Source of the DNA: Gammaproteobacteria bacterium
GTDB lineage: Bacteria; Pseudomonadota; Gammaproteobacteria; JBCCGL01
DNA length: 64,000 nucleotides
Direction of reading: 5' to 3'
NCBI GenBank assembly: GCA_965277715.1
Contig: OZ255836.1
Span: 4,111,632-4,175,631 of the forward strand
A program made the position numbers and the translations under genes. Positions within the stretch are counted from its first letter, which is position 1; each line of letters begins with the position of its first letter. Below, piece by piece: positions 7,161 through 33,983 of this stretch. Below the pieces are notes generated by a model, which was given only the letters and a program-made list of their open reading frames with translations, made no database searches and was not told where the DNA came from.

Positions 7161-7300
7161 CGGGCCGGAATTAATTCAGTTGAACCATGGTGAGAACACT
7201 TTACCTTCAGTGTATTGACATCTAAATGTGTGAAGTAAACTCAACTTATTGGTTTAGCGTTAAATGACAATCTGTTTTTAGCACTGTGGGTGAATAACCT

Positions 7301-8431: not shown

Positions 8432-8446
8432 ACGGTACAGCTTCTT

Positions 8447-9433: not shown

Positions 9434-9451
9434 TCAAATAATAGTGAAACC

Positions 9452-16365: not shown

Positions 16366-16632
16366 TGTTTTCAGCCTTTTTTTACAGCGTGGGCTGTATG
16401 TTTTGGGTGCCGGTATGTTGTTGCAGGGCGTGGCGGATTATGTCCCCTCTCTGGCCGAAACCTGCCGCCTGGAAATACAACTCCTCTCTATTTTTAGCGT
16501 TGAAGTTATCGGTGTTGACGCCGTTATCTATCGCTGTGTTGGCTGTCGCCATATCGTTATCTGCCTGATGAGGTTAACAACGTAAAGCAATTAGGTTGCC
16601 AGCCGTTCAATTGATCCGGGTCTTGATTGAGT

Positions 16633-16659
16633 TAAAGGTTTTTTACAGTGTGTCGATAC
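16633..16659 (+). promoter_or_regulatory. sigma28 (FliA)-type promoter upstream of fliC
   Basis: TAAAGGTT-N11-GTCGATAC, against the consensus TAAAGTTT-N11-GCCGATAA. It lies about 105 nt upstream of the fliC start. Confidence 0.55.
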
Positions 16660-16764
16660 CCCCCACAGAGTGACAACAAACTGCGGGATAAGGCCGCTAC
16701 CTGTGTACTCCCTGGGGCCCGATGGGGCTGCCAATAAACTAAACAGTGATTTTGGAGAAAGACA

Positions 16765-18231
16765 ATGGCATTAACGATTAATACAAATGTCGCCAGCCTG
16801 AATGCGCAGCGGAACCTGACGGGGACTCAGCGCGATTTGGGTACGGCGTTACAACGGTTGTCGTCTGGTTTGCGCGTTAACAGCGCAAAAGATGATGCAG
16901 CGGGCCTCGCTATTGCCGCCCGGTTTACCGCACAAATCCGGGGTTCAGATCAGGCAGCGAGAAATGCTAATGACGGTATTTCTGTGTTACAGATTGCTGA
17001 AGGTGCCTTGAATGAAGTGTCTTCTAACTTACAGCGTATTCGCGAGCTGGCCGTGCAATCGGCCAATGCCAGTAACTCCAGCAGCGACCGTGCGAAGCTG
17101 AATAACGAGTCCGCACAGTTAATTGCTGAAATAGACCGCGTTGCAAGCAACACGAATTTTAACGGGTTAAATTTGCTGGATGGCACTTTTACCGGCCAGC
17201 GGTTACAGGTGGGCGCCGATTCGAACGCATCTAACCAGATTAGCATAACGCAAATTGCCAGTGCACGTTCTGGCGCGTTAGGGGTGGGTGGCCAATCGTC
17301 TTATTCTACGACCGTTACCGGCGGGGCGGTAACCGCTGCGACTGCCCTGGTTTCAGGTGGTATTACTATCAACGGTTTTCAGGTCGGTGCCAGTATTGCC
17401 GATGGGGTGTCATTCAATAATTCCACCGGTAGTGGTATTGCCAAAGCGGCGGCGATTAACGCGATCTCTACCAATACTAATGTTGTTGCCACTACATCGG
17501 CGACAACACTGACTGGAACGGTTAATACCGCAGCAACAACAGACAGCGATGGCGCTACCCTCAATGGTGTGGCACTGGGCACGGTTGTCGCTGTAGGTGC
17601 GGCCAACCTCGATCAGAAGGTGACTAACTTCACCGCCGCTGTTAACGCCATTAGCAGCCAGACGGGTGTAACGGCAACGATTACCAATGTCACGGCAGGT
17701 ACGTATACGCTGACTGCAGCAGATGGCCGGAATATCGATTATGTTGCTGACACAACCACCAATGGTTCTGTCGGTGGCGCGGCCGATGCCTCAGCTACCA
17801 GTAATATTGTACTGACCTCGACAAGCTCTACCGGCATCACCATCGGTGGTACTGCGGCGCAAATTGCCGCCGCAGGCCTGACCGGTGGCGCCAATGCTGC
17901 CACAGTGACCGTTAGTGCAGGTGTCTCCGCGCTGGATTTATCGACGGTGACAGGTTCTACCTCGGCACTGGGGGTCATTGATGCGGCGATAGAGAACATC
18001 GCCAACAGCCGGGCATCGCTGGGTGCATTCCAGAACCGCTTGGAATCGACCATATCCAATCTGCAGATTCAATCTGAAAACCTCAGTGCGTCACGCGGTC
18101 GGATTCAGGACGCGGATTTTGCCGCTGAGACGGCGAGCCTGTCGCGTTCACAGATTCTGCAACAGGCGGGTACGGCCATTCTGGCACAGGCTAACGCCCT
18201 GCCACAAAGCGTCTTGTCACTGCTACAGTAA
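16765..18231 (+). CDS. fliC: flagellin
   Basis: Canonical N-terminus (MALTINTNVASLNAQRNL..LSSGLRVNSAKDDAAGLAIA) and C-terminus (SRGRIQDADFAAETASLSRSQILQQAGTAILAQANALPQSVLSLLQ). It has a long, low-complexity central domain rich in T/S/A/G. Confidence 0.9.
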   Translation: MALTINTNVASLNAQRNLTGTQRDLGTALQRLSSGLRVNSAKDDAAGLAIAARFTAQIRGSDQAARNANDGISVLQIAEGALNEVSSNLQRIRELAVQSANASNSSSDRAKLNNESAQLIAEIDRVASNTNFNGLNLLDGTFTGQRLQVGADSNASNQISITQIASARSGALGVGGQSSYSTTVTGGAVTAATALVSGGITINGFQVGASIADGVSFNNSTGSGIAKAAAINAISTNTNVVATTSATTLTGTVNTAATTDSDGATLNGVALGTVVAVGAANLDQKVTNFTAAVNAISSQTGVTATITNVTAGTYTLTAADGRNIDYVADTTTNGSVGGAADASATSNIVLTSTSSTGITIGGTAAQIAAAGLTGGANAATVTVSAGVSALDLSTVTGSTSALGVIDAAIENIANSRASLGAFQNRLESTISNLQIQSENLSASRGRIQDADFAAETASLSRSQILQQAGTAILAQANALPQSVLSLLQ

Positions 18232-18249
18232 CAAACGTTTCCGCATGAG

Positions 18250-18286
18250 GCGGGGTGAGGTATCAGCCTGATACCTCACCGCCGCT
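18250..18286 (+). terminator. strong near-perfect palindromic stem-loop 3' of fliC (attenuator or stabiliser; no U-tract)
   Basis: GGCGGGGTGAGGTATCAG-C-CTGATACCTCACCGCCGC is a 15-17 bp stem with a 3-nt loop. It starts 19 nt after the fliC stop. It is not followed by a T-run. Confidence 0.4.
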
Positions 18287-18308
18287 GAAACGCAAGAGAG
18301 TCAAAGCC

Positions 18309-18725
18309 ATGAGAATTGAAACACAAAATGCAGTTGCCCGGGATTCAGCTACACAGGCACAAAGTGGCCCTGCTGTGCTTGCACCGGTAATCCGGCTCGA
18401 TCCCACAGCGCGGCAATCACCTGCAGGTACTGAACAGGCCTTGCCGGGAAATGCCGCTTTGGATAGCTCTGGGGCAGAAACTGAGCAGCTAAACGCCGCC
18501 GTGCGCAACATTAACGATTACGTACAGCGCTTGCAGCGCACCCTGCAGTTTTCTGTTGATGATGATACGGGCACCACGGTTGTCAAAGTGCTCAATGCGG
18601 AGACTGATGAGCTTATTCGTCAGTTTCCCCCGGAAGAAGCGCTGGCATTGGCCCGCCATTTGCAGTCGTCTCAGGAAACGCAGGCGCTTGACAATAGTGG
18701 TCTGATCTTACGTGCCCGTGCCTGA
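18309..18725 (+). CDS. flaG: flagellar protein FlaG
   Basis: 139-aa protein between fliC and fliD, with the FlaG-family C-terminal pattern (LQFSVDDDTGTTVVKVLNAETDELIRQFPPEEALALARHL). I place the start at the ATG at 18309, because the upstream extension of the six-frame ORF (from 18255) overlaps the fliC 3' stem-loop. Confidence 0.6.
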   Translation: MRIETQNAVARDSATQAQSGPAVLAPVIRLDPTARQSPAGTEQALPGNAALDSSGAETEQLNAAVRNINDYVQRLQRTLQFSVDDDTGTTVVKVLNAETDELIRQFPPEEALALARHLQSSQETQALDNSGLILRARA

Positions 18726-18847
18726 TGGGGTGTTTGAAATGGGGTTTTATAACGCACGCCAATGGGGTAAACCGTCGTGTTTACCCCGTTTAGAATGGTT
18801 CAGGTGTTAATGACCCAGGTGTTAATGGCCCAGGTGTACTAATGATC

Positions 18848-18863
18848 TGGGCGTACTTTTGCA
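18848..18863 (+). promoter_or_regulatory. sigma54-type -24/-12 promoter upstream of fliD
   Basis: TGGGCG-N5-TTGCA matches GG-N10-GC against the consensus TGGCAC-N5-TTGCW. It lies about 100 nt upstream of fliD. A FleQ-type enhancer-binding protein is encoded in the same cluster. Confidence 0.45.
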
Positions 18864-18961
18864 TCAGCGGGCTGAGACGCCAACAAACCTTTTGCAACAC
18901 ACCTGGCGGATTCGTATAGGTCTCACCGAACAATCAACGTGTGCGCGGTATTTGACGCACA

Positions 18962-20380
18962 TTGGATTTAACCATGATCACATCGGCTGGTATAGGCTCC
19001 GGGCTTGATATTGAAAATATAATAACGCAGCTGGTAACCGCTGAAGGTCAGCCTGCTGCGCAGAGATTGGATCGACGTGAAGCGGGATACCAGGCTGAAT
19101 TGTCTGGCTTGGGGCAAGTGAATTCAGCGCTCTCGCAATTTCGAACAAGTGTCACCACACTGCAAAATTTTGGCACTTCACAGCCGCGTGTGGCAACGGT
19201 GAGTGACAGCACTGTATTCACTGCATCAGCGACTGGCAGCGCGGTTTCTGCAAGTTACCAGATCCAGGTTAATGCGATTGCCGAAGCGCACCGTGTGAGC
19301 ACAGCAGGCGTCGCGACATCCAGTACCGCAACAGGCACTGGCACGCTGACAATCACCACCAACAGCAAATCGTTTAATGTGGTGGTCAATACCACTAATA
19401 ACACACTGGCCGGCATTCGCAGTGCCATTAATAGTGCTCAGGACAACACGGGTGTGAGTGCAACGATCGTCAATGTCGACAATGGTACGGGTGGTACGGA
19501 GAGTCGGCTGGTGTTAAGTGCGACTAACACGGGCACCCTGCACAACATCACCGTCTCAGCGGATGACGACGACAACAATGATACCGATACCTCGGGCTTA
19601 TCAATTATTTCCACGGCCAATTTGAGCGTGCTGAATGCGGCAGTCAATGCCAGTATTAGCATTGACGGGCAAACGGTTACCCGCGCTTCAAATACCATTA
19701 GTGATGCCATCGACGGGGTTTCATTGACGCTGCAAAAAGCCGATGTCGGCGTCAATAAAACCTTGACTGTCGGGCTTGATAAAGCGGCGGTCCGCACGGC
19801 TGTATCCACATTTGTCTCCACCTACAATTCGTTGCAGGGGACGTTAAACCAATTGACATTTTACAACGCCACCAATAACACCTCTGGGGCGTTGCTGGGG
19901 GATGCCACATTGCGTAATGTGAGGAACCAGATATCACAACAACTGAGCCAGACGGTGGCCGCTGTCAGCGGTACATTTAATAGCCTGCCCAGTATTGGCA
20001 TTGTTTCTGATGCCAGCGGCAACTTTCAACTGAATAACACCGTGTTCAACGCCGCGCTGGACAGCAACTTTAATGACATCAATACATTGTTTGCCGACGG
20101 CACAAATGGGATTGCCGTCAAACTGAGAACACTGCTCGATTCCTATCTTGGCAGCAGTGGCATCTTGCGAACACGCACCGATGGGTTACAAACCAGCATT
20201 AGCTCGATCAGCGATTCACGCCAACAACTGAGTGATCGATTGATACGTATTGAAGCGCGCTTTCGCACGGAGTTTACCGCGCTGGATACGCTGGTGGCCA
20301 ATTTCCAATCAACCGCAAATTTTCTTACGCAACAACTGGCGAACCTACCAGGGTTTACCCGTGCCCGTAATAACAGTTAA
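18962..20380 (+). CDS. fliD: flagellar filament cap protein FliD
   Basis: 472 aa with FliD N- and C-terminal coiled-coil regions and a central variable domain. Gene order is fliC-flaG-fliD-fliS. Confidence 0.8.
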   Translation: MDLTMITSAGIGSGLDIENIITQLVTAEGQPAAQRLDRREAGYQAELSGLGQVNSALSQFRTSVTTLQNFGTSQPRVATVSDSTVFTASATGSAVSASYQIQVNAIAEAHRVSTAGVATSSTATGTGTLTITTNSKSFNVVVNTTNNTLAGIRSAINSAQDNTGVSATIVNVDNGTGGTESRLVLSATNTGTLHNITVSADDDDNNDTDTSGLSIISTANLSVLNAAVNASISIDGQTVTRASNTISDAIDGVSLTLQKADVGVNKTLTVGLDKAAVRTAVSTFVSTYNSLQGTLNQLTFYNATNNTSGALLGDATLRNVRNQISQQLSQTVAAVSGTFNSLPSIGIVSDASGNFQLNNTVFNAALDSNFNDINTLFADGTNGIAVKLRTLLDSYLGSSGILRTRTDGLQTSISSISDSRQQLSDRLIRIEARFRTEFTALDTLVANFQSTANFLTQQLANLPGFTRARNNS

Positions 20381-20459
20381 GTGTCGGTTATGTCTTGCAG
20401 GTGATGACTGAAAACAACCGGTGTTACGCCAACCAAAATAAACGATTAAGAGGACTATT

Positions 20460-20888
20460 ATGAGTGTTACAAACCCAGGTGCGCTGCACGAATATCAACA
20501 GGTGGGGGTTTTTTCTGGCGCGGCCTACGCCGATCCGCACTATTTGATTACCATGCTGATGGAAGGTGCGCTGGAACGCATTGCATTGACCAAAGGAGCG
20601 ATAGCCAAAGGGGATGTGGTGGAAAAAAGTCGATTGATTGGTAATGCCATTACCATTGTGGAAGGGTTAAAGGGGTGCCTGGATTTATCCGTTGGCGGCG
20701 AATTGGCGCAAAACCTGGCAGACCTATACGATTACATGACGCGCCGCTTACTCAATGCCAACCTGAACAACGATATACAGATGCTCGATGAAGTAGCCAG
20801 TTTGTTGCACGAAATAAAAGTCGCCTGGCAGCAGATTCCGCAAGTGCACGAAAAACCCAAAAACCTGGAACGTATGGCGGTGAGATAG
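20460..20888 (+). CDS. fliS: flagellin-specific chaperone FliS
   Basis: 142 aa with FliS-family helices (LLMEGALERI...AIKIVEGLK-like). Position after fliD. Confidence 0.8.
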   Translation: MSVTNPGALHEYQQVGVFSGAAYADPHYLITMLMEGALERIALTKGAIAKGDVVEKSRLIGNAITIVEGLKGCLDLSVGGELAQNLADLYDYMTRRLLNANLNNDIQMLDEVASLLHEIKVAWQQIPQVHEKPKNLERMAVR

Positions 20889-20899
20889 CGTGAAAACAT

Positions 20900-21265
20900 G
20901 TGTTCGATTTACATTTGTTCGATTCAACGGGGGCTTTTAGCTTGAACTACAACGCATTGATCCAGGATATCGTTGACCTAAGCCAACAGATAGAGGATTT
21001 AGCGCAGAGCGACGACTGGCTGTCGATGCAAAACCTCGCCGACCGGCGTATGCGCGGTCTGCACACACTATTCGCCGCATTAGCATTGGATCAGCCTGTA
21101 CAACTGTCGGTGCTGGATTGTAAAAAACTAAACCATGTCCTCGATGCCAACCAACGCATTTTGGCCCATACCCGCCGTCGGCGCGATGCGGTAGTAATGG
21201 CGGTTGCTACACAGCGCGCCGCTACCGCTGCGCAGCGGGCATACACGGCCTGTCCTCAATACTAA
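20900..21265 (+). CDS. hypothetical small flagellar-locus protein at the FliT/FleP position
   Basis: 121-aa helical ORF at the conserved slot between fliS and fleQ. No diagnostic motif. Confidence 0.3.
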   Translation: MFDLHLFDSTGAFSLNYNALIQDIVDLSQQIEDLAQSDDWLSMQNLADRRMRGLHTLFAALALDQPVQLSVLDCKKLNHVLDANQRILAHTRRRRDAVVMAVATQRAATAAQRAYTACPQY

Positions 21266-21539
21266 CAAGCCAAATCTGGTCCTTCCAACGGGTAACAGGG
21301 ATAAATTTGGTGAGAAATATGCGCTAAATTTTTGTAATACTGTTTATTTTGTCTAATATTATAATGAGTTACAAAAAACCTTATATTAGCAATGCCTTGA
21401 ATTCACTGTGCAGCCAGCCCAACGCAGTCTGCATTCGCTTCAGCCGCGTTCGGTAGGCTATCTCCGCCATCCAAGTATGACCGGAAGACCTTCAGAATGT
21501 GAAATTCCAATCGGTAGACCGGTGATACGACACAAATAA

Positions 21540-22997
21540 ATGACCAAAAAAACACTAAAGAAAGTACTTGTAGTTGATATCGATACGGAGCGAACACGAT
21601 CACTGGCCACCTTGCTGAATTTTCTGGACTACAATGCCCAGGTACTCAGTAGCCCCGCACTCTTGCGCGAATTGACAGACCTGGCGGATTACGGCGCCCT
21701 GTTTCTCTATGAATCAAAGCAGGCACTGGCAATTGCTGCAGAGCTTGCCGAGAAATTGAGCCAGTGCCCGCCGTTGGTGCTGGTCGGTGATCACTTTGCC
21801 AATGAGCCGAGTGAAGGGGCACTGCCACCGGGGTTTATCGCCGCCATGAAAACGGACATCAAATACCCCGAGTTGAGCAATTTACTGCACCGTACTGAAC
21901 TCACCGCAAAACAACACAACAAAGACCTGCCACAATCGCTGGAGTTATTCCGCAGCCTGGTGGGCAACAGCCGCACTATCCGTCGTGTGCGCAAAATGAT
22001 CGAACAGGTTGCCAGTACTGAAGCCACTGTCTTGATTTTGGGTGAATCCGGCACGGGTAAAGAAGTGGTTGCGCGCAACATCCACTACTACTCAACACGC
22101 AGAAACAAACCGTTTGTACCCATCAACTGTGGCGCTATTCCCGGTGATCTGCTGGAAAGCGAACTGTTTGGCCATGAAAAGGGAGCGTTTACCGGCGCCT
22201 TGAGTGCCCGTCAGGGGCGTTTTGAACTGGCTGAAGGTGGCACTATCTTTCTCGATGAAATCGGGGATATGCCGTTGAACATGCAAGTCAAATTGTTACG
22301 GGTGATTCAGGAGCGCTCATTTGAGCGCGTTGGCAGCAACCGCAGCATCAAAACCAACGTGCGCATTATCGCGGCAACCCACCGTGACCTGGATGTATTG
22401 ATCGAGCAGGGACAATTCCGTGAAGATTTGTATTATCGACTCAATGTCTTCCCAATCGAAATGCCGGCAATGCGTGATCGACTCGAAGATCTGCCCTTGC
22501 TGGTCAACGAATTAATCACCCGGCTCGAACACGAAAAAAGTGGCTCGGTACGCCTGACGCCCGCCGCAATCGCCACCTTGTGCAACTACCGCTGGCCGGG
22601 CAATGTACGTGAGCTGGCCAACCTGATTGAACGGTTGGCGATTCTCTTCCCCTACGGTGTGGCGGATGTCAAAGACCTGCCCGCCAAAATAGTGCCAACG
22701 CAAACCAGTGGAGAACTTATCCCGCATGATGCAGTGGCGCTTGAGTATCCCGTCACTATGAGCTCAGGGGGCATGGCTAACCTGGAAATCCTCAGTAGTG
22801 AGCCACGCCTGCCGCGTGAGGGCATTGATCTAAAACAACACCTTACCGATATTGAAGTGAGCTTGATTAAGCAAGCCCTCGACGACACCGATTGGGTTGT
22901 CGCGCACTCGGCAAAGCGCCTGCGTATCCGGCGCACCACCCTGGTGGAAAAAATGCGCAAATACAATATCGTGCGGACTGAAGAGCTGTTGTTATAA
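21540..22997 (+). CDS. fleQ: sigma54-dependent flagellar master regulator (FleQ/FlrA-type enhancer-binding protein)
   Basis: It has an N-terminal FleQ/REC-like domain, an AAA+ sigma54-activation domain ([29 protein letters not shown]) and a C-terminal Fis-type HTH. It sits downstream of fliS-fliT, as fleQ does in Pseudomonas. Confidence 0.8.
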
Positions 22998-23768: not shown

Positions 23769-24359
23769 TCACTTTTTCATAAATTCAACAAACACTACAG
23801 CCGAGCCGTTGATAAGAATGCTTTCAACGTCGGATAAGGGTATTTCCGTATTTTCGCTATCAAGCCAGCTCGCCTCCCTGAGTAGAAAATGGCCGCTATG
23901 CGGTTCAGTTGGCCATTCTGAAGGCCAGCCGTATATTCTTCTACCATCATCCAGGTGCAATACAACATAGGTTATATTGTCGGCAAAGGCGCTAAACCAC
24001 TCGGACGCATAAGATGTTTCGCGGGTGATAGCGAGTTTTCTCATCAGCGCGTGAAACTTATCATTGTTTGCAAAATAAGCAAACACTAGACCCAATAGCA
24101 ATGATGTTATTAAGGCGCTGAGTAATTCGGTATTGGTATTCCATTCTATCCATCCGGGGTGTAGGCCCGTTACATTGGCCAGTGCTTTAAACAGAAACCC
24201 TAAACCCTGGATAATAATAGTAAATATGAGTGCTTGAACAACCCGTTCAAAATGGGATTGCTTGGGGTAGGAGGTAAAGGCATAAAAAATCCACGCGGTG
24301 ACGAAGCCGGGCAGCAGATATTGCAATAGTGATATAACACCGGTGTTGATTAAATCCAT
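23769..24359 (-). CDS. hypothetical membrane protein with about 3 N-terminal TM helices and a C-terminal soluble domain
   Basis: 196-aa ORF with hydrophobic helices (LLQYLLPGFVTAWIFYAF, VVQALIFTIIIQGLGFLF, LLSALITSLLLGLVFAYF). It lies in an AT-rich context, divergent from the CHAT gene. No recognisable motif. Confidence 0.4.
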   Translation of the reverse strand: MDLINTGVISLLQYLLPGFVTAWIFYAFTSYPKQSHFERVVQALIFTIIIQGLGFLFKALANVTGLHPGWIEWNTNTELLSALITSLLLGLVFAYFANNDKFHALMRKLAITRETSYASEWFSAFADNITYVVLHLDDGRRIYGWPSEWPTEPHSGHFLLREASWLDSENTEIPLSDVESILINGSAVVFVEFMKK

Positions 24360-24492: not shown

Positions 24493-25962
24493 ATGGAACA
24501 GCACAATATTTTGATACTCGGCGCCAGCCCCTGGAATCTTCACCGGGTTAGCCATGATGTAGAAATTCGTAATATACAAAAAGCCATAAAAAAAAGTAGT
24601 GGCGCAGATGCATTCTCTATCGAAACCAACTCCGCCGCGCAGTATCAGGATTTAGGCGAGGCGGTTTTGGCGCAGCAACCGCATATCCTGCATTTCTGTG
24701 GGCATGGCGGGGGTGATGTGGGGTTGGTTTTTGTGGATGAAGATAACAACGCCCAGCTCGCGGATAACACGGCTATGGAAAAACTCATCCGTATGCTGGG
24801 CAATCATGTGCGCTGTGTGTTTCTCAATGCCTGTTACAGTGAGGTGCAGGCAAAGTTACTAATTCCTCATGTCGACTATGTTATTGGCGTGCAGGGCACA
24901 GTGGGTGATGCCGACGCTCAGGCGTTTAGCACGGCATTTTATGAAAAACTGGGGGCTGGTTACCCGCTTACCTATGCTTTTGAGTTGGCCTACAACGACC
25001 ACTACCACGCCGAGCACTGTCGGCCAGTGTTGCTCAGCCGCAGTGAGCACCGCCTCTACCACAGTGATCTCGATACCCTCAATGAAATAAGCCAACGGTT
25101 GCAAACCGTCACCCCTGGTATTGCCCTCCTGGGCCAGGCGGGCCGTATCAGTGCTGCTTTGCCTCCAGCACTGCGAGCACGGATGCAGGGAACCTTTGGC
25201 CCTGAACGGGTATTAACACTTAGCCCCGTCAGTGACGACAAACAACAAGGTGCATTTTTTGCCCATCTCGCCGAGCAGGCGCAGTCTGATCAGGTCGACT
25301 TTAGCGGGTTAGCAACCGTCTTACAGCACCGGGTGGAAGACGGTAGCCTGCGCTGCCTGTTGCTAGGCCATTTGCAGCGCGGTAGCGCTGAAGAGTCCCG
25401 GCAACTGGCCGAGTTGTTGCGCAATTTATGTGAAGGGGGGCGGTTAAAGGTGGTGATTTACGGTGAGCGAAGACTGCGCGATTTAATGGTGCTTAACGGT
25501 GCGCTATCACCGCTGAATATGTTGGATTCACTCTACCTTGCCGAGTTGGGTGTAGAGGATGTTCTCAAGCTTGAGCCAGAGTTGAAGAGAGAAGAAGCCG
25601 AGGATTTGTTGGCGCTGTCTGGCGGGCACCCACGGCTGTTGCGTGAAGCGCTGTTTTGCTATCGCCAACAACCCAATCTGAATAAGGTAGCCGAGCAGTT
25701 GCAAACTGCGGTCGATGATATTGTCGATCAATGTCTTTGTGATTTTCGGGGGCAGGAGGATAGTATGGTGTTGTTAGCGGATTGCTTGCGTGAAGAACGG
25801 GCGGGTTACCGAGCAGACTTGATAGGTGATGAAGTGTTGGCGGCTTTATATTGGCATAACTTGCTGCGGCAGCAGGGGCATCAGTTGTACTGGCGTTGTA
25901 GTTTATTGCGTGAGACGGTGGAAGCAGTAGCGGCCAGCCTGGCCCGGCGGGCGGGGGTGTGA
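24493..25962 (+). CDS. CHAT-domain (caspase-like, clan CD) peptidase with a C-terminal alpha-helical domain of unknown function
   Basis: The N-terminal ~130 aa carry the CHAT/caspase His-Gly and Cys catalytic dyad in the canonical context (PHILHFCGHGGGD ... VRCVFLNACYSE). The remaining ~330 aa are Leu/Arg-rich and helical. There is no signal peptide. The stop at 25960-62 lies 1 nt before the next gene's GTG start. Confidence 0.7.
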   Translation: MEQHNILILGASPWNLHRVSHDVEIRNIQKAIKKSSGADAFSIETNSAAQYQDLGEAVLAQQPHILHFCGHGGGDVGLVFVDEDNNAQLADNTAMEKLIRMLGNHVRCVFLNACYSEVQAKLLIPHVDYVIGVQGTVGDADAQAFSTAFYEKLGAGYPLTYAFELAYNDHYHAEHCRPVLLSRSEHRLYHSDLDTLNEISQRLQTVTPGIALLGQAGRISAALPPALRARMQGTFGPERVLTLSPVSDDKQQGAFFAHLAEQAQSDQVDFSGLATVLQHRVEDGSLRCLLLGHLQRGSAEESRQLAELLRNLCEGGRLKVVIYGERRLRDLMVLNGALSPLNMLDSLYLAELGVEDVLKLEPELKREEAEDLLALSGGHPRLLREALFCYRQQPNLNKVAEQLQTAVDDIVDQCLCDFRGQEDSMVLLADCLREERAGYRADLIGDEVLAALYWHNLLRQQGHQLYWRCSLLRETVEAVAASLARRAGV

Positions 25963-25963
25963 T

Positions 25964-28900
25964 GTGCAGTTGAGACTTAGCGTGGCGTTACGCTACGGCT
26001 TACTATTGGGTTTGTGTGTGGGGTGGCTGCCGTTGGGGGTAGTGGCGGATGCTGTGCGACCGGCTTTGGTGCCTGCGGGTGAGCAGTTGGCTAGTGGTGA
26101 AGGGGCGTTGGATAGTTTGGCTCGGCGTTTGAATACACGCTTGGGCACTGTCCATCACGCGGCCTTCAGCCCGCAGGGAGATCGCATCGTTACGGCATCG
26201 AGTGATAACACTGCGCGGCTGTGGAATGCAGACAATGGCGAACTGATTGTGGTGCTTGAGGGGCATACGGATTGGGTTAATCACGCGGCTTTCAGCCCGC
26301 AGGGAGATCGAATCGTTACGGCATCGGATGATAATACTGCGCGGTTATGGAACGCAGACAATGGCGAACTGATTGCGGTGCTTGAGGGGCATACGGGCAG
26401 AGTTTATCACGCGGCCTTCAGCCCGCAGGGAGATCGCATCGTTACGGCATCGGGTGATGATACTGCGCGGCTGTGGAACGCAGACGATGGTGAACTGATC
26501 GATGTGCTTAAGGGGCATACGGATTGGGTTAATCACGCGGCTTTCAGTCCACAGGGAGATCGAATCGTTACGGCATCGGATGATAATACTGCGCGGTTAT
26601 GGAACGCAGACAATGGCGAACTGATTGCGGTGCTTGAGGGGCATACGGGCAGAGTTTATCACGCGGCCTTCAGCCCGCAGGGAGATCGCATCGTTACGGC
26701 ATCGGGTGATGATACTGCGCGGCTGTGGAACGCAGACGATGGTGAACTGATCGATGTGCTTAAGGGGCATACGGATTGGGTTAATCACGCGGCTTTCAGT
26801 CCACAGGGAGATCGAATCGTTACGGCATCGGATGATAATACTGCGCGGTTATGGAACGCAGACAATGGCGAACTGATTGCGGTGCTTGAGGGGCATACGG
26901 GCAGAGTTTATCACGCGGCCTTCAGCCCGCAGGGAGATCGCATCGTTACGGCATCGGGTGATGATACTGCGCGGCTGTGGAACGCAGACGATGGTGAACT
27001 GATCGATGTGCTTAAGGGGCATACGGATTGGGTTAATCACGCGGCTTTCAGTCCACAGGGAGATCGAATCGTTACGGCATCGGATGATAATACTGCGCGG
27101 TTATGGAACGCAGACAATGGCGAACTGATTGCGGTGCTTGAGGGGCATACGGGCAGAGTTTATCACGCGGCCTTCAGCCCGCAGGGAGATCGCATCGTTA
27201 CGGCGTCGAGAGATAACACTGCGCGGCTGTGGAACGCGGGCGATGGCGAACTGATCGCGGTGCTTGAGGGGCATACGGGCAGAGTTTATCACGCGGCTTT
27301 CAGCCCGCAGGGAGATCGCATCGTTACGGCATCGAGAGATAACACTGCGCGGCTGTGGAATGCAGACAATGGCGAACTGATTGTGGTGCTTGAGGGGCAT
27401 ACGAGTTGGGTTTATCACGCGGCCTTCAGCCCGCAGGGAGATCGCATCGTTACGGCATCGAGAGATAACACTGCGCGGCTGTGGAATGCAGACAATGGCG
27501 AACTGATTGTGGTGCTTGAGGGGCATAGGAATAGGTTTTATCACGCGGCCTTCAGCCCGCAGGGAGATCGCATCGTTACGGTATCGGGTGATGATACTGC
27601 GCGGCTGTGGAATGCAGACGATGGTGAACTGATCGATGTGCTTAAGGGGCATACGGATTGGGTTAATCACGCGGCTTTCAGTCCACAGGGAGATCGAATC
27701 GTTACGGCATCGGGAGATAACACTGCGCGGCTGTGGAATGCAGACAATGGCGAACTGATTGTGGTGCTTGAGGGGCATAGGAATAGGGTTTCTCACGCGG
27801 CCTTCAGCCCGCAGGGAGATCGCATCGTTACGGCATCGGGTGATGATACTGCGCGGCTGTGGAATGCAGACAATGGCGAACTGATTGCGGTGCTTGAGGG
27901 GCATAGGAATAGGGTTTCTCACGCGGCCTTCAGCCCGCAGGGAGATCGTATCGTTACGGCATCTAGGGGTAAGACTGTGCGGCTGTGGAGCGCAGACGAT
28001 GGCGAACTGATCGCGGTGTTTGAGGGGCATACGGATCGGGTTACTCACGCAGCCTTCAGCCCGCAGGGTAATCGCATTGTCACCGCCTCATTCGATGGCA
28101 GTATAAGACTATGGGACACAGATACAGCTAAACCGCTACGGCTTATGGTGGCCACCAGCAACGGCCAATGGCTAAACTGCCAGGCGAACGGCCATTGCTT
28201 ACGCCACGACGATGGCACATTGTTTTGGCCGCCTCTACCTCCCCAGGCCACAGGCGGTAAACTGAGCCTGGAAAATCTGCCCGAGGCGACAATCGACACC
28301 TGTATGTCGCTGCCTTGCGAGCCACGCGACTTTGTTGTCGGGATTCGCAATACCGGCACCGCGCCACTCTATTGGCTACAAGTGGTCTCGGCAGAAAGCG
28401 GCCCTGTCTCACTGTCATTACCCCCACCGCCGTTACCGCCATTGCACCCCGATGATCATGTTGAGCTAAGCATACGCCTGGCCAGCGTAGCACCCACACA
28501 GCAACCCCAGCGCCAAAACACCAGTATAAAATTGGCTATTCGCCACGCCCATGGCGAATTACCAATAGACCTGCCAGTAACCGTGCGCACCCCAGAGATT
28601 ACTCTGCTGGAAGCCAGCCTGACAGAAAACCGCGAAACCATCGCAGTGCAGGTGAGTAACCACGGCGGGGTTTCACTATCCCAGGCGGTTGCAGAGGCCG
28701 CCATCAATGGCCAGGCGATACCCGGTAGCCTTAACCTTCCAGTGCTTCCGGGCAATATGTCGAAACCACAACAATTGGCTTTTACGGCGCCCGCAGATTT
28801 TAACTACCCGGACGACACTGAGTTCACTTTGCAGTTGCGCAACGCCAACTACCCCCATTATCAGTGGACACTCAAACACCCGCTCACCCTGCCCTGGCAA

Positions 28901-30586
28901 CTCTATACCTTGCTGGCAGCACTGATTCTGGTGCTTGGCGGGCTGGCCTGGTTTGTCGGTGTGCGCTGGCATCCACTGGTGCGGCTGGCGGTTAATCAAG
29001 GCCCCACCGCGCTGGCACTGCCCCAGCTGGGCCAGGCGCGCCGCTGGCTGCAACGCGCCCGCCTGTGGCGGGATACCGTGCAGGCGCAAGGGCTGGCAGC
29101 GCGCTGGCAAAGCGCCGAGGCGTTTTTGGCCTGCCCTGACCCGGTGCAGCAAATCGAACAACTGGCCGGGCGTTTACAGGCCGAGGTGTTGCCCGCGAAT
29201 GAGGCTACCCCCACCTGGCTGGCCACCTTGCGTCTTAACGAAGGCTTTATCCTGCGCTTACCACAGTGCACGGTGGCGCTGCCCGGCGCCGATCATTCTA
29301 TCGACCAGATCACCACTCAGCTACGCCGTTGCGAAGGTGTATGCCTGCTAATCACCACAGACCCGGATCAACAGGCCGCGCTGCGCGCCGACCGCCAGGC
29401 CACCTGGGTGATACCGGACAACCAGGCTTTGGTGCGCCTATGGCTGGCAGCGGCGGATAAGGTTAACGATCAACTGGCCTCTATTATCGCCGAGCAGGTC
29501 GATACCCGTAGCCTTTCGCCCTGGCGCACTGGTCACGGTATGGAGGATATGACGATGTTTTTTGGCCGCGACCAGTTACTGCGCGATATCCTCGAACGAC
29601 CACCGCGTAACTACCTGCTGGTTGGGGCGCGGCAGCTGGGTAAAACCAGTCTGCTGCAAAAACTGCAACATCTCTGCGATCAGCGCGATACATTGCGTGG
29701 CTTTAAAATCTCGCTGGGCTCCGGCCATTTTGCCATCGATTTGCAACGCATCGCTGGGCAGTTGGCGTTGGCGCGCAACGCCTCTTTGCCAGACATTCTC
29801 ACTGCGTTGGCGCACCCGCCCGCCGGGATCCATCACTGGTTGTTAGTCGACGAGGCCGACGAGCTGGCGGGCAACCACACCCCGGAAAATGCAGCGGTTT
29901 TAGATCAAATGCGCAACCTGAGCGCCGAGGGCCGCTGTCATTTTATCCTCGCCGGGTTTTGGGGCCTGTACCGTGAGGCGATACTGGAGTACCAATCAAA
30001 ACTGAAAAACTTTGGTGACCTGCTGCTGTTGGATGCTCTGGAAGACAAGGCCAGCCGGGCGCTACTCACCCGGCCTATGCACGCCTTGCAGATTCACTAC
30101 CAGGATGACACCCTGGTAACGCGGATTCTGCACGAGACCGGCGGGCGCACTAATTTGCTGGCTATTGTCGCCGATGACCTGGTGCGCCGACTTGGCAATC
30201 AACGCCGGGTGATTACCGATGAAGATATCAGCGAAGTGCTAAACGATGCGGTGTTTCAGGATCGCCTGCTCGACTGGAAAACACTATCAGGGAATATACT
30301 AGATCAAATACTGGTATACGCTAGTATCGACCTCAACCCACTAGAGCAGGGTTTTACCGAGGCTGAATTATGGCAACGGTTGGATGAATTGGGAGACGAA
30401 GTATCCGATGATGCCGTACAAAATTCGCTGATTCGTTTACGGCTGGGATTTATCATCAAACGCGTTGGTGGACGTTACTACTATCGCGTGCCCGTGCAAG
30501 TACAGCAAATCCTCGACAGCGAACCGGAGCGTGCCTTGCGTAGATTGCTCAATTCTTTAGTCGGTGATATATCGAAACAATGTTGA
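25964..30586 (+). CDS. giant multidomain protein: signal peptide or anchor, then about 16 WD40 repeats, beta-rich linker domains, a single TM helix, then a cytoplasmic STAND/AAA_16-like P-loop NTPase with a C-terminal winged-helix
   Basis: N-terminal hydrophobic leader (LRYGLLLGLCVGWLPLGVVA). 16 units of a 42-aa WD40-like blade (HAAFSPQGDRIVTASxDNTARLWNADxGELIAVLEGHTxxV). A TM helix (LYTLLAALILVLGGLAWFVGVRW, nt ~28897-28970). Then FFGRDQLLRDILERPPRNYLLVGARQLGKTSLL, which is the FxGR-x(n)-GxxxxGKT/S pattern typical of STAND/AAA_16 ATPases. Walker B HHWLLVDEADEL. C-terminal wH-like RLRLGFIIKRVGGRYYYRVP. GTG start coupled to the CHAT gene. Confidence 0.75.
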   Translation: MQLRLSVALRYGLLLGLCVGWLPLGVVADAVRPALVPAGEQLASGEGALDSLARRLNTRLGTVHHAAFSPQGDRIVTASSDNTARLWNADNGELIVVLEGHTDWVNHAAFSPQGDRIVTASDDNTARLWNADNGELIAVLEGHTGRVYHAAFSPQGDRIVTASGDDTARLWNADDGELIDVLKGHTDWVNHAAFSPQGDRIVTASDDNTARLWNADNGELIAVLEGHTGRVYHAAFSPQGDRIVTASGDDTARLWNADDGELIDVLKGHTDWVNHAAFSPQGDRIVTASDDNTARLWNADNGELIAVLEGHTGRVYHAAFSPQGDRIVTASGDDTARLWNADDGELIDVLKGHTDWVNHAAFSPQGDRIVTASDDNTARLWNADNGELIAVLEGHTGRVYHAAFSPQGDRIVTASRDNTARLWNAGDGELIAVLEGHTGRVYHAAFSPQGDRIVTASRDNTARLWNADNGELIVVLEGHTSWVYHAAFSPQGDRIVTASRDNTARLWNADNGELIVVLEGHRNRFYHAAFSPQGDRIVTVSGDDTARLWNADDGELIDVLKGHTDWVNHAAFSPQGDRIVTASGDNTARLWNADNGELIVVLEGHRNRVSHAAFSPQGDRIVTASGDDTARLWNADNGELIAVLEGHRNRVSHAAFSPQGDRIVTASRGKTVRLWSADDGELIAVFEGHTDRVTHAAFSPQGNRIVTASFDGSIRLWDTDTAKPLRLMVATSNGQWLNCQANGHCLRHDDGTLFWPPLPPQATGGKLSLENLPEATIDTCMSLPCEPRDFVVGIRNTGTAPLYWLQVVSAESGPVSLSLPPPPLPPLHPDDHVELSIRLASVAPTQQPQRQNTSIKLAIRHAHGELPIDLPVTVRTPEITLLEASLTENRETIAVQVSNHGGVSLSQAVAEAAINGQAIPGSLNLPVLPGNMSKPQQLAFTAPADFNYPDDTEFTLQLRNANYPHYQWTLKHPLTLPWQLYTLLAALILVLGGLAWFVGVRWHPLVRLAVNQGPTALALPQLGQARRWLQRARLWRDTVQAQGLAARWQSAEAFLACPDPVQQIEQLAGRLQAEVLPANEATPTWLATLRLNEGFILRLPQCTVALPGADHSIDQITTQLRRCEGVCLLITTDPDQQAALRADRQATWVIPDNQALVRLWLAAADKVNDQLASIIAEQVDTRSLSPWRTGHGMEDMTMFFGRDQLLRDILERPPRNYLLVGARQLGKTSLLQKLQHLCDQRDTLRGFKISLGSGHFAIDLQRIAGQLALARNASLPDILTALAHPPAGIHHWLLVDEADELAGNHTPENAAVLDQMRNLSAEGRCHFILAGFWGLYREAILEYQSKLKNFGDLLLLDALEDKASRALLTRPMHALQIHYQDDTLVTRILHETGGRTNLLAIVADDLVRRLGNQRRVITDEDISEVLNDAVFQDRLLDWKTLSGNILDQILVYASIDLNPLEQGFTEAELWQRLDELGDEVSDDAVQNSLIRLRLGFIIKRVGGRYYYRVPVQVQQILDSEPERALRRLLNSLVGDISKQC
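26140..28120 (+). repeat. intragenic tandem DNA repeats (126-bp WD40 unit; 252-bp super-unit) with near-100% nucleotide identity
   Basis: At least three perfect 252-bp copies lie between about 26280 and 27100. The minus-strand ORFs 26345-26536, 26597-26788 and 26849-27040 have identical translations at exact 252-bp spacing. About 10 further, slightly diverged 126-bp units follow. Confidence 0.9.
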
Positions 30587-30708
30587 GGAGCGCATAACGG
30601 TAGACTGTAAGCGCCCTTAAATCAGCCTCTATTCCAAGGTAATGTCCAAAACGACATTCCAAGGTAGCAAGGCCTCTATCTTTTCAAGGAAAAAAAAAGA
30701 AAAAAAAA

Positions 30709-30806
30709 GGGGTCAAGGCAGTTATTTCCTATATTTCTTGCTGGAAATCACTGTTTTTATCCGTATTAGTCGTTGTATGGTGAATAATAAGCCTGACCCC
30801 CTTGCT
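30709..30806. mobile_element. MITE-like ~95-bp repeat element, copy 1 (short GGGGTCA terminal inverted repeats)
   Basis: AAAAAGGGGTCAAGGCAGTTATTTCCTATATTTCTTGCTGGAAA(T/C)CACTGTTTTTATCCGTATTAGTCGTTGTATGGTGAATAATAAGCCTGACCCCCTTGCTTTT. It recurs almost identically at 34784 and 37611. Its ends are inverted (GGGGTCAAG ... CCTGACCCC). Confidence 0.55.
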
Positions 30807-31187
30807 TTTAGGCTACGCAAAATTAGCCACAGCAGAAATACAATACCAGCGAGCTGGATGGTTATACCGAGAACAGCATTCATAAGGGGTTTCTCCAGAT
30901 TACGCCGGGGGAACCTCCTTCCCTGCCGGGAAGAAAAACCCCGGCAGGGTGGTTAAAACAAAATAAAAACAAAAAATAATGGGCTGCTTCTTTTGAGAGA
31001 CCAGCTATCTCTTAGGGCATACCTATCGGCAACGCCCTGACACTGACCGGGGTCAGCAATAAGTAGAAACCAAGATAGCGTGTCCTGCTAGAACGGGCAG
31101 TGAAGAAGATGGCAGTTTTTAACACCTATCGCACCGCCACAAAAATACACTGGTACTACCCTGATATTTTTATCTGGTGGCAATGTT

Positions 31188-31772
31188 ATGGCATCTAAAA
31201 CCCCCTATTCTCGTCCAACCTTTGAACAATCTTTTACGCTGCACAGCCTTCAGGCCCAGCGGGTGGTGCAACGGGTGCTGAGGCGTACCGTACACGCCTT
31301 ATACGGCATTGAAGTAATTTTACGGATTATTGGGGATGAAAAAGCCATTGACGAAGTGGACGGCATTATCCGGGACGCGGTAACTCATGCCGCCAGCGAA
31401 CTGGAGCAGGAACAAAGCCGACTGAATCTTTTAATGGAAGAAAACGGCATTGATGAGACGCCAAACTATACCCACCCGTACACCTTTACGGCCAAAATCA
31501 GTTCGCCGCAAATCGGTCAGTTTATAGGACTGATACGCAAACTGGATGCCGTGATGATTGCCCGTGATACGCTTTGGTTAACCGGGGTTATCAGCAATCA
31601 ACAGAGGGCAGATGGGAATTTTGATGGGCAGCAAAAACTTACCCTGCTGGCACGGCATATTATTGATATTGAAACGCGAGCAAGGCAATCGGCGAATAGC
31701 CAAGGTAAGCAGGAAGAAGTGGAGGCGGTGGTGCCGGTGATGGAGGAAGTACTGGAAGCTGAAGAAGATTGA
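31188..31772 (+). CDS. hypothetical protein (island-encoded)
   Basis: 194-aa ORF in the AT-rich island. It has an acidic C-terminus (EEVEAVVPVMEEVLEAEED). No motif I can name with confidence. Confidence 0.35.
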   Translation: MASKTPYSRPTFEQSFTLHSLQAQRVVQRVLRRTVHALYGIEVILRIIGDEKAIDEVDGIIRDAVTHAASELEQEQSRLNLLMEENGIDETPNYTHPYTFTAKISSPQIGQFIGLIRKLDAVMIARDTLWLTGVISNQQRADGNFDGQQKLTLLARHIIDIETRARQSANSQGKQEEVEAVVPVMEEVLEAEED

Positions 31773-31937
31773 GAAGATTAAATAACCACCAACTAAAGTC
31801 GGTAAGTCCAATATTGGCTAAGCCGCCATCAGACTTCACATGTCCAATTAACTATCCAGTGGTTGACCTGCATTACCGGAAGGGACTCTCATCTATTGGA
31901 GATTTTGACTTGATTGCATACCCATTTATTTGATCGA

Positions 31938-33122
31938 TTATTCAGCGGTACAGCTAATCGTTTTGTTAGTCCACGGAGCACCATTCCAAGAATCTTCGAC
32001 TCCTGGAGAAACTCGGCTTAATAGTTCATCAGATACTTCGCCGTCTCCACCACATTGCTCAAAACTAGTCTGCACACCATGTACGAATAGGCTTGCAGAA
32101 TCTCCACAAAGCACTGGCTTATCAATTGATGTCAGCACTGAGCTAGAGAGAAGTACTAACCTGTACACAGGGTTCAGATAGGCATCGAAACCTGGAATGA
32201 TATACTGTCCAGCTGGCAATTGAGCAAAGCGTCGAAAACCGGTAAGGGTTTGAAACGCTATCATGTCAGAAGCAGCCCGCTGTGCAAATGTTTCTAATAC
32301 ACCGTCATCCTCCCAATCTGTAATTGGGTTTGAATGAAGCGCTTCGACTTGACGGGCAGCACATCTGTCCGCATTGATTTCATTCGGGTTTGGATTGGAT
32401 GCACAAAACAAATCGTTCGAGGTTTGGAGAGCCAGGATGTGTTGAAACAAGCCAGACGTTTCCATACGCGACTTTGTGCTTACGGGGCACTTTTCGTTGT
32501 TAATGTGATACGTCTCATGACCCACCAGTGAGGCCAGATTGAACGCCATTATGCGATTTTGAATAACTGCTATTCTGCGTAGATTAGCTGAAACATTGTT
32601 CTGCTCAATGCCTTGAAATTGATTGTCAATGAACGTGCGAAGTGGCTCTTGCATCGCCGCAACGTTATCTGCATGAACGGTCTCGTCTGCATATCCGAAC
32701 GCCAGTTTGACAGGACGGTCAAACGCAATTCGAAATGACTCATAGTCTGGGTAAGCGCCTTGAACAAATTGTATTGCATACCAGCTTGCTACCATGTTCA
32801 TTCGCTGGAAGGCTGATTGGCGACAGAACATCTTCCCAGGTATTGCTGCGCAAACTGTATCAGGCATGCTGTCATTGCAAACTGCTCTTCGGATTTTCAA
32901 ATCCAGTTTTTCACTACCACCTTTTAGAATCGAAGTTAATTGAATCATACTTATGTGTTGCCAATTCGACCCGCCAAATGTTTCCTCGTGACAGATTGAA
33001 AGTTCAATCTCTGCATTTACCCGTTGAACTGACAATATTTGCACAATCGCAACAAAAAGCAGAATTGCTCTTGAGCTAATCATTTCAGTGCACCAATTAA
33101 TGTGTCGAGTACCCCCTCGCAA
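31938..33122 (-). CDS. hypothetical secreted protein with an HExxH zinc-metallopeptidase-like motif
   Basis: 394 aa. N-terminal signal peptide (ILLFVAIVQILSVQRVNA). HETYH motif (LASLVGHETYHINNEKC). Low GC. Confidence 0.35.
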   Translation of the reverse strand: MRGGTRHINWCTEMISSRAILLFVAIVQILSVQRVNAEIELSICHEETFGGSNWQHISMIQLTSILKGGSEKLDLKIRRAVCNDSMPDTVCAAIPGKMFCRQSAFQRMNMVASWYAIQFVQGAYPDYESFRIAFDRPVKLAFGYADETVHADNVAAMQEPLRTFIDNQFQGIEQNNVSANLRRIAVIQNRIMAFNLASLVGHETYHINNEKCPVSTKSRMETSGLFQHILALQTSNDLFCASNPNPNEINADRCAARQVEALHSNPITDWEDDGVLETFAQRAASDMIAFQTLTGFRRFAQLPAGQYIIPGFDAYLNPVYRLVLLSSSVLTSIDKPVLCGDSASLFVHGVQTSFEQCGGDGEVSDELLSRVSPGVEDSWNGAPWTNKTISCTAE

Positions 33123-33451
33123 TTACCAACATGTATCTGGACGGCGCTTGTCAGCCCCTGTAAGTCTTGATTTGGCAATTGGCTTAAGCTTTTTGTTCGT
33201 TTTAAGCTGGTCAGACAGTTTTCAACCGGGCCGACTTGTAAGCTTGCCAATTTGCTTACTCTTTCTCCACCTGGAGGAAATGCAACAGCAAGAGTCACCC
33301 CAGCAGTTAAAAACGCCGATAGAATTGTCCATACATAGGTTCGCTTCTTCCACTTGTCCTCAAGGGCCAGCTTCAGTTTCTCCAACTCAAATTTGGCATT
33401 TTCTAAGTCAGGTTGATTGTCCATCAGCTTAAGGTTCTTAGGTCTGACCAC
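33080..33451 (-). CDS. hypothetical small membrane-anchored protein
   Basis: 123 aa with an N-terminal coiled/charged region and then one TM helix (VWTILSAFLTAGVTLAVAF). It overlaps the neighbouring genes in an operon-like arrangement. Confidence 0.3.
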   Translation of the reverse strand: MVRPKNLKLMDNQPDLENAKFELEKLKLALEDKWKKRTYVWTILSAFLTAGVTLAVAFPPGGERVSKLASLQVGPVENCLTSLKRTKSLSQLPNQDLQGLTSAVQIHVGNCEGVLDTLIGALK

Positions 33452-33983
33452 ATTTTAGTGCCGCATCCAGGTTATCCTGCAAACCTGCTATATCCCAGGT
33501 TTCCAGCAAATCTCTAATAAGAGTAGGATCAAGCTCTGTGCCATCTTTTTTTAGGTAATACACCGACGTACGAGCACGTTCACGATTGATATCCACCTTA
33601 TAAGTTAATTCAAAAACTCCTTCGATATTATCACCGGTTGCGTGAAAAAAAATACTGCCAAGGGTTTTCTCGCGCCTCGGCAAAACCAAACCCTTCAAAT
33701 TCGTCCAGGCCACAAAAACGCTTTCTATTTTGTCTGTACAGTCAGCCAACTTTGGGATAAAACGGTTTTGAAAATAGGATGTCTGATCAAAGCCACCGCC
33801 GATACCTGGATCTTCAGGATCAGGTGCTGCGTCCAGTGATGAGACCGCCCCGATACTTGTCAACGCAGTTTTTGAGGTATTATCAGCAAGTGCAAGACCT
33901 ACATTGGCAAGTAAGCTGATAGTCAACACGACCAGAAGACAAGGAATGTTCAACATAGATATTTTTTCAATTCGTTTGAACAA
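33438..33983 (-). CDS. hypothetical secreted protein
   Basis: 181 aa with a signal peptide (MLNIPCLLVVLTISLLANVGLALA). First gene of a three-gene minus-strand cluster. Confidence 0.35.
   Translation of the reverse strand: MFKRIEKISMLNIPCLLVVLTISLLANVGLALADNTSKTALTSIGAVSSLDAAPDPEDPGIGGGFDQTSYFQNRFIPKLADCTDKIESVFVAWTNLKGLVLPRREKTLGSIFFHATGDNIEGVFELTYKVDINRERARTSVYYLKKDGTELDPTLIRDLLETWDIAGLQDNLDAALKCGQT

Follow-up and report, generated by a model that had tools for sequence, protein, structure and literature searches.

Inactive STAND modules of the iSTAND and iSTAND2 type belong to the vWA-MoxR ternary conflict systems, which are enriched in multicellular and filamentous bacteria according to two surveys (Kaur et al. 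2020, PMC7159879; Kaur et al. 2021, PMC8195603). The latter also describes, in its section 15, a two-gene operon in which an active STAND is accompanied by an inactive STAND fused to GT4 or HEPN. Here, we analyze a gene pair in a stretch of 64,000 nucleotides (the window) from a Gammaproteobacteria bacterium (assembly GCA_965277715.1, contig OZ255836.1, positions 4,111,632 to 4,175,631). One gene encodes an N-terminal CHAT (caspase-like) protease domain followed by a STAND-type module devoid of the nucleotide-binding motifs, and the protein is hence called CHAT-pseudo-STAND; the partner gene, directly downstream, encodes a predicted membrane-spanning receptor with WD40 propellers and an intact STAND NTPase. 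We lean toward the interpretation that CHAT-pseudo-STAND is the output subunit of a two-gene signalling or immune module, in which the membrane-spanning ATPase serves as the receptor.

The pair shares the active/inactive STAND logic with the known systems but differs from them in every component. Like iSTAND and iSTAND2, the module examined here is an eroded STAND that, within predicted conflict systems, is joined to domains with effector or signalling roles (TIR, trypsin, caspase and EADs). The iSTAND systems are, however, defined by the pair of a MoxR AAA+ ATPase and a vWA protein, and no MoxR or vWA gene was found among the open reading frames (ORFs) at 14401-37553 of the window or in the related loci L003-L012; the partner is instead an active STAND with a predicted membrane anchor. 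The GT4/HEPN operon is similar in that intact and eroded STANDs are adjacent, the eroded one carries variable effectors, and a hetero-multimer is predicted, but its STAND clade is placed near CR-ATPases and S29/Dap3, and no membrane or extracytoplasmic sensor is described for it in PMC8195603. In our pair, by contrast, the inactive copy is AAA_35-like and the active copy is nSTAND1-like and predicted to span the membrane, and the outputs are TIR, CHAT, SEFIR or helix-turn-helix (HTH)-like instead of the GT4 and HEPN of that operon.

In terms of the proposed principle, namely activation of a caspase-fold protease or TIR by proximity on a STAND oligomer, the pair would also resemble the apoptosomes (CED-4/CED-3 and Apaf-1/caspase-9), Avs and bNACHT. 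Apoptosomes nonetheless recruit the protease through CARD-type adaptors, whereas the effector examined here carries a dead STAND. Avs and bNACHT are single cytosolic polypeptides with active NTPases, whereas sensing/NTPase and effector functions are split over two proteins in our system, and its sensor is predicted to reside outside the cytoplasm. No Avs or NACHT model of PADLOC matched the pair. WD40 sensors are mentioned in a 2026 survey of defence STANDs, but a targeted term search of its text gave no such transmembrane or two-protein arrangement, and no description of the pairing was found in a search of an incomplete literature library that included targeted reading of PMC7159879, PMC8195603, PMC13581612 and PMC10907252. 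The two-gene system is widespread, as described below, and apparently undescribed.

The CHAT protease domain

The CHAT-pseudo-STAND gene (24493..25962) starts with ATG, ends at a single stop codon and encodes a protein of 489 amino acids; it lies on the + strand, as do the partner gene and all features of both, and the opposite strand is full of stops. An identical protein (P0001) is found in public collections, and the N-terminus can be aligned with those of homologues. By using a 30-row alignment as the input, AlphaFold2 gave a model with a predicted local distance difference test (pLDDT) score of 90.7 and a predicted template modelling (pTM) score of 0.79. The CHAT domain in this model spans amino acids 1-182 (24493..25038), longer than the first ~130 amino acids assigned in the first-pass annotation of the window, and possesses the caspase-hemoglobinase fold (clan CD); 185 residues can be structurally aligned to SAVED-CHAT (8tl0). 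Pfam PF12770 (CHAT) also matched amino acids 15-176 above the curated threshold (36.4 bits, cut-off 24; E 5.2e-9).

The two CHAT motifs are HFCGHG at amino acids 67-72 and NACYS at amino acids 112-116. The predicted catalytic His71 (codon 24703..24705) pairs with the His in HFIGHG of 8tl0, and the predicted catalytic Cys114 (codon 24832..24834), in LNACYS, pairs with that in LNAC of 8tl0. Both residues are invariant in the CHAT alignment; the His/Cys dyad is hence intact, as the first-pass annotation had proposed, and the protease is probably active. That annotation had also regarded the N-terminal position of the domain as unusual. This is true of CHAT domains in general, but the same position is found in all of the 20 non-identical sequence relatives, in which CHAT precedes AAA_35, FGE-sulfatase, TIR, SAVED, SIR2_2, pentapeptide or EAD-type modules. 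In SAVED-CHAT of type III CRISPR signalling (8tl0), for comparison, CHAT is C-terminal and follows the SAVED sensor for cyclic oligonucleotides, whereas CHAT in our protein is N-terminal and precedes the pseudo-STAND module. No NCBIfam model matched the protein.

A STAND module without nucleotide-binding motifs

The remainder of the protein had been annotated as ~330 helical residues, possibly a docking arm. In the AlphaFold2 model, however, the C-terminal ~300 amino acids form a five-stranded alpha/beta core, a helical bundle and a winged-helix-like unit in this order, and the region is better described, as far as the model goes, as a complete module of nucleotide-binding, helical and winged-helix domains. 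This tripartite order is that of STAND NTPases. The core (amino acids 204-352; 25102..25548) is composed of five beta-alpha units with strands at 209-213, 240-243, 288-292, 319-324 and 345-348. The helical domain (amino acids 353-433; 25549..25791; helices at 354-432) harbors GGHP at amino acids 377-380 (25621..25632), which sits between two helices of the bundle and pairs with GGHP[FY]L of intact AAA_35. The suggestion in the first-pass annotation that the segment 'LALSGGHPRLL' resembles the GxP motif of STAND proteins is correct: GGHP is the STAND GxP motif. Far beyond chance, it is also the best-conserved feature among the 91 aligned family members (G377 in 91/91, G378 in 74/91, H379 in 81/91 and P380 in 80/91). 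The winged-helix-like domain (25792..25959) has strands at 436-439, 458-461 and 464-467 and helices at 447-454 and 470-486 within residues 436-486, with invariant W454 and W467-R468-C469, and is followed by no repeat or other sensor domain in the model.

Structural comparison placed the module among STAND proteins: 257-277 residues are alignable to 2qen, 2fna, WRR4A and an NB-ARC resistosome, and the neighbors include CED-4, Avs3, Avs4, Avs5 and plant NLRs. The structures 2qen and 2fna are the top two structural neighbors of the NTPase in the partner as well, and the C-terminal fold is of the same class as that of the partner and not an unrelated known fold. When the profile of the 91 sequences was compared with intact AAA_35 by hhalign, the probability was 95.4% with an E of 1.9e-8 over 258 columns. 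In the window protein itself, AAA_35 (PF14516) matched weakly at amino acids 334-407, around GGHP, and stayed below the gathering threshold (16.8 and 18.0 bits against 27); no Pfam iSTAND-type family matched. Homology to AAA_35 is nonetheless supported by the profile comparison, and the pseudo-STAND module probably descends from AAA_35-type NTPases.

Neither of the motifs of an active STAND, Walker A (GxxxxGK[ST]) and Walker B (hhhhD[DE]), is present in the window protein. The Walker A position is occupied by a decayed P-loop, 'GQAGRIS' (25132..25152), without GK[ST], and the corresponding family column 'LLLAQxxR' lies opposite 'APRQMGKTS' of AAA_35. The Walker B strand reads 'CLLLGHLQ' (25354..25377) with no DD/DE, and the family consensus LFLLVSGFE is aligned with 'LVLGLDEVD' of AAA_35. 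Across the family, the catalytic Lys/Ser-Thr and the acidic pair have been lost; one of the 91 members, P0106, keeps GK[ST] at the Walker A column (GQADSGKT), apparently as a remnant of an ancestral P-loop. Lacking both Walker A and B, the pseudo-STAND module is not workable as a canonical P-loop NTPase. Also, an hhGRExE-type motif upstream of the P-loop, which Leipe and colleagues are said to have listed in 2004 as a STAND feature, is absent from the effector protein.

Polar residues are nonetheless kept in the family at the sites homologous to the nucleotide-binding motifs (Q215 in 85/91, E295 in 83/91, S339 in 88/91, N342 in 74/91 and H379 in 81/91). This would fit retained ligand binding, and inactive STAND modules have been predicted to sense invaders by binding nucleic acids (Kaur et al., PMC8195603). 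The pseudo-STAND might then be the sensor itself, a receptor for nucleic acids or a small ligand, with the membrane NTPase only anchoring, chaperoning or resetting it. We regard this as improbable, because the obvious variable, repeat-based sensor sits on the partner, the pseudo-STAND module has no sensor domain past the winged helix, and E295 is replaced by Gln in the window protein.

E295Q is one of four substitutions unique to the window protein, the others being G325E, P350A and G476V, all at family sites with 83-91% conservation (codons 25375-25377, 25465-25467, 25540-25542 and 25918-25920 for residues 295, 325, 350 and 476, respectively). By sequence, therefore, the window protein is a divergent member of the family, and it may be drifting functionally or be adapted to its own partner.

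The pseudo-STAND family

When the C-terminal domain was used as the query of an exhaustive HMMER search, 310 representatives of 50% identity clusters were retrieved at E<=1e-3, of which 90 were at E<=1e-30. The clusters are named, where they are named at all, 'TIR domain-containing' or 'hypothetical'. The pseudo-STAND module is always C-terminal and preceded by about 0 to 550 N-terminal residues, in which Pfam recognized, among 91 members, TIR_2 (52), CHAT (7), SEFIR (6), a single EAD2, trypsin, caspase and others. Most of the CHAT-bearing members retain the HFxGHG and LNAC motifs. The CHAT-bearing version is a rare sub-variant, accounting for about 4-8% of the family members.

The relatives closest in architecture are the CHAT/TIR-AAA_35 proteins (PF14516; for example the cyanobacterial P0005, P0015, P0017, P0003 and P0012), which have the same compact N-terminal CHAT domain (35-40% identity) and share with the window protein the type of the STAND module, GGHP[FY]L and SPFNVG/LSLLN. 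In these proteins, however, Walker A (RQMGKTS) and Walker B (LGLDEVD), both missing from the window protein and its family, are retained, and none was seen to be paired with a transmembrane nSTAND1 partner. Two of these proteins with active AAA_35, P0003 and P0012, show a triple architecture of CHAT, TIR and a STAND module; the same order is found in P0174 of the pseudo-STAND family, and P0034 (689 amino acids) in this family may share it. In the related locus L005 (702-7047), a second pair with intact AAA_35 modules was noticed 1 kb upstream of a TIR-pseudo-STAND/WD40 pair; it consists of TIR_2+AAA_35 (501 amino acids) and AAA_35+FGE-sulfatase (725 amino acids), followed by another FGE-sulfatase protein, and may represent an 'all-active' cousin of our pair.

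The predicted partner receptor

The partner gene (25964..30586) begins with GTG 1 nt after the stop codon of the CHAT gene and encodes 1540 amino acids. Its N-terminus (25964..26053) is signal-peptide-like in a hydropathy scan, with a charged start, a hydrophobic core and ...VVADA, and a similar start was found by hydropathy in the partners from L005, L008, L009 and L011. Sixteen WD40 blades of exactly 42 amino acids each follow (26126..28168; Pfam WD40, E 1e-172), and then come a proline-rich middle region with no Pfam match (28169..28897) and a single transmembrane helix at amino acids 979-1002 (28898..28969), after which basic 'RWHPLV' is found (YRHPLV in homologues). The part beyond the membrane is composed of juxtamembrane helices with a small alpha/beta domain (28970..29503), predicted to be cytoplasmic and kept in homologues, and an intact STAND NTPase with TGGRTNL and a winged helix (29504..30583); AlphaFold2 modelled amino acids 1003-1540 with a pLDDT of 83.8.

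The NTPase matched nSTAND1 (PF20703) with an E of 3.4e-9 (37.2 bits against a cut-off of 27.1) and possesses Walker A (GARQLGKTS, 29624-29650), Walker B (LLVDEADE, 29840-29863) and an hhGRExE-type motif (FFGRDQLL, amino acids 1199-1206). In Foldseek, its best neighbors were 2qen (2.4e-10) and 2fna (9.5e-10), and next came Orc1/Cdc6 and Sr35, a plant NLR. The partner had been annotated as an NTPase; this holds for its C-terminal end, but the protein as a whole is predicted to be a membrane-spanning WD40 receptor. The alignment between the pseudo-STAND module and the NTPase in the partner was weak (hhalign, 65%, E 6e-5), so that the two modules are distant paralogues at best and not products of a recent duplication. 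Because of the N-terminal signal or anchor, the single transmembrane helix and the positive charges following it, a type-I-like membrane topology is predicted for the partner, with the WD40 propellers outside the cytoplasm and nSTAND1 inside.

The WD40 region is also a tandem repeat at the DNA level (26154-28077; 126-bp unit, 15.3 copies, 87% matches and no indels), with a super-period of 84 amino acids or two blades (DWVN/GRVY alternation) and a strong positive GC skew. In PADLOC, a repeat model matched the partner. Amino-acid variation among the 16 blades is focused on about 8 positions. At blade positions 3, 6, 22 and 38, we counted 0-8 synonymous versus 87-93 nonsynonymous codon differences, while the framework positions of WD40 have synonymous differences only. 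Such a pattern is what a diversifying binding surface should produce, and it suggests concerted evolution of the repeats combined with diversifying selection.

Pairing and co-diversification of the two genes

A homologue of the partner is found directly downstream of family members at L001, L003, L005, L006, L007, L008, L009 and L011, of which L003 and L011 are from Candidatus Thiothrix. At L001, the contig ends early, and the signal-peptide N-terminus is the same as that of L003a; at L008, a scaffold gap lies inside the WD40 region. Among the effector loci, L010 is the only one (1/8) without a partner. In the locus of P0203 (L014), the contig begins inside the locus.

We then looked at the pairing from the side of the partner. 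A scan of species-representative genomes with the partner alignment gave 239 relatives of its NTPase, and the loci of 80 of these were analyzed. Among the 56 partner loci for which 5 kb or more of upstream sequence was available, 52 had a pseudo-STAND gene upstream on the same strand and four had none; with 3.5 kb or more, the count was 54 of 58. Where the upstream sequence was shorter than 2 kb (16 loci), none was found, as expected from contigs ending early. The paired loci, including those of Pseudomonas, Stenotrophomonas and Xanthomonas, extend across proteobacterial classes and other phyla, with gene junctions that are 1-nt or overlapping.

The pairing persists, furthermore, through replacement of both variable ends, the sensor and the output. 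As sensors, the partner homologues carry WD40 arrays, an NHL propeller or a domain of ~120 amino acids between two transmembrane helices. The last of these is seen in Stenotrophomonas, and the Pseudomonas loci that share its ~540-nt spacing probably have it too. In 51 full-length proteins, the outputs were HTH-like (28), TIR (19), CHAT (2) and SEFIR (1); the two CHAT cases, from Thiothrix sp. STA_22 and Thiolinea disciformis, are the closest CHAT-bearing relatives. Pairwise distances of the two constant modules were well correlated over 8 loci (r = 0.978, Mantel p about 2e-4), although a correlation is also expected from mere co-inheritance in an operon and is inflated here by the near-duplicate pair L003/L011. 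By these sequence distances, the pseudo-STAND module and the partner NTPase diversify as a unit.

These results bear on the trivial explanation that the two genes are chance neighbors, or that CHAT-pseudo-STAND is an autonomous protease autoinhibited by its C-terminal domain. L010 and the four partner loci without the other gene would be in line with it, and the pTM of 0.79 suggests a defined packing between CHAT and pseudo-STAND. Given the same-strand adjacency over such a taxonomic range, the tight junctions and a pairing that outlasts changes of sensor and output, however, this explanation is strongly disfavored and, in our estimate, very improbable. The functional link to the partner, which the first-pass annotation had supposed, is thus strongly supported.

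Two loci show other arrangements of the same modules. In L035 (Chromatiaceae; 5381-9064), the pseudo-STAND module is the C-terminus of a stop-to-stop frame of ~1228 amino acids that abuts the partner module, and in L092 (Thiolinea disciformis; 6588-10194), CHAT-pseudo-STAND is followed by a partner seemingly without the sensor and transmembrane parts.

Genomic surroundings

Upstream of the cassette in the window lies a flagellar cluster (14401-22997) with genes for a Maf-type flagellin glycosyltransferase (- strand), flagellin, FlaG, FliD, FliS, a 121-amino-acid ORF without matches and a FleQ-type sigma-54 activator. A divergent gene for a DUF6338 membrane protein (23769-24359, - strand) is just upstream of the CHAT gene and is not conserved beside the cassette in other loci. 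The downstream ORFs at 30642-35806 (104, 194, 394, 181, 168 and 238 amino acids) had no Pfam, NCBIfam or PADLOC match and are followed by a gene for an IS4-family DDE transposase (36108-37553, - strand). The GC content is about 0.56 over the cassette (24800-30200) against 0.44-0.49 in both flanks; the cassette may thus be a horizontally acquired islet. As to marks of integration, no tRNA was located close to the cassette. Promoter and terminator scans were at the chance level (8 hits against 7.0 expected and 10 against 7.7, respectively) and hence give no information on operon boundaries. In the related loci, PIN-type toxin-antitoxin pairs are located beside the two genes in L009 (6315-6963) and L003 (12688-13345 and 16092-16806) and between them in L008 (8475-9394), and type I restriction-modification genes are nearby in L003 and L011.

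Proposed mode of action

In the mechanism that we propose, the CHAT and partner genes would be co-transcribed, and a ligand would bind the extracytoplasmic WD40 propellers, from which the signal would be relayed through the transmembrane helix and the juxtamembrane region. The active NTPase of the partner would then oligomerize in a nucleotide-dependent manner, and the pseudo-STAND module would co-assemble with, or dock onto, this oligomer via STAND-STAND contacts. The CHAT domains would thereby be brought together and activated by induced proximity, as the apoptosome does for caspases; 8tl0 is, by its title, an activated CHAT filament. In the sister systems, the same pseudo-STAND module would deliver TIR, SEFIR or HTH-like outputs. 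Apoptosomes and TIR proteins provide precedents for activation by induced proximity, and by analogy this mode would suit caspase-fold proteases and TIR domains alike. Alternatively, the action of the partner on the effector could be enzymatic instead of a co-assembly.

As to the biological role, one possibility, which we raise tentatively, is an outside-in pathway of innate immunity or allorecognition. Propellers located in the periplasm or at the surface of the cell would recognize neighboring cells or non-self, for example phage particles or ejection proteins, and the oligomer of the STAND ATPase would template the dead-STAND adaptors with their TIR or caspase-like effectors. Such a pathway would parallel the signalling from Toll-like receptors to TIR adaptors as well as that from apoptosomes to caspases, but would be built from a split pair of active and inactive STANDs, and the HTH-bearing relatives would use this pathway to control transcription.

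The abundance of HTH-like outputs also suits general outside-in signal transduction outside of immunity or abortive infection, in which CHAT would be a site-specific processing protease cleaving, for example, a regulator. We consider this rather unlikely. TIR, SEFIR and CHAT are typical effectors of conflict systems (PMC7159879, PMC8195603), and the toxic-type outputs go with long WD40 arrays, in which the variation is focused on nonsynonymous changes. Several loci have toxin-antitoxin pairs and restriction-modification genes on their flanks, the cassette differs in GC content from its surroundings and has an IS4 transposase nearby, and no candidate substrate gene is conserved beside the pair.

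Several points weigh against the receptor-effector module that we favor. In addition to the unpaired loci and the two reservations on the correlation described above, most outputs in the species-representative genomes are HTH-like and not toxic, so that 'immunity' is not assured. The topology of the partner was deduced from hydropathy and charge. In PADLOC-DB v2, the effector matched only the generic 'chat' and 'SAVED_CHAT' domain models and no system-specific model. Also, given E295Q, G325E, P350A and G476V, the window protein could be a decaying copy.

Conclusion

The characterized STAND/NLR-like defences of bacteria such as Avs and bNACHT are, to our knowledge, each made of one cytosolic protein, which recognizes phage proteins once they have entered the cell. 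If the proposed mode of action is correct, the job would here be split between a membrane-spanning ATPase receptor with an extracytoplasmic, diversifying propeller sensor and a separate effector coupled to it by a dead STAND, and the pair would be an example of envelope-side sensing that feeds TIR or caspase-like effectors. The pair would also serve as a tractable bacterial model for pseudo-NTPase subunits as adaptors in STAND assemblies, and a function would be provided for about 310 unannotated protein clusters and at least 239 partner loci in species-representative genomes.

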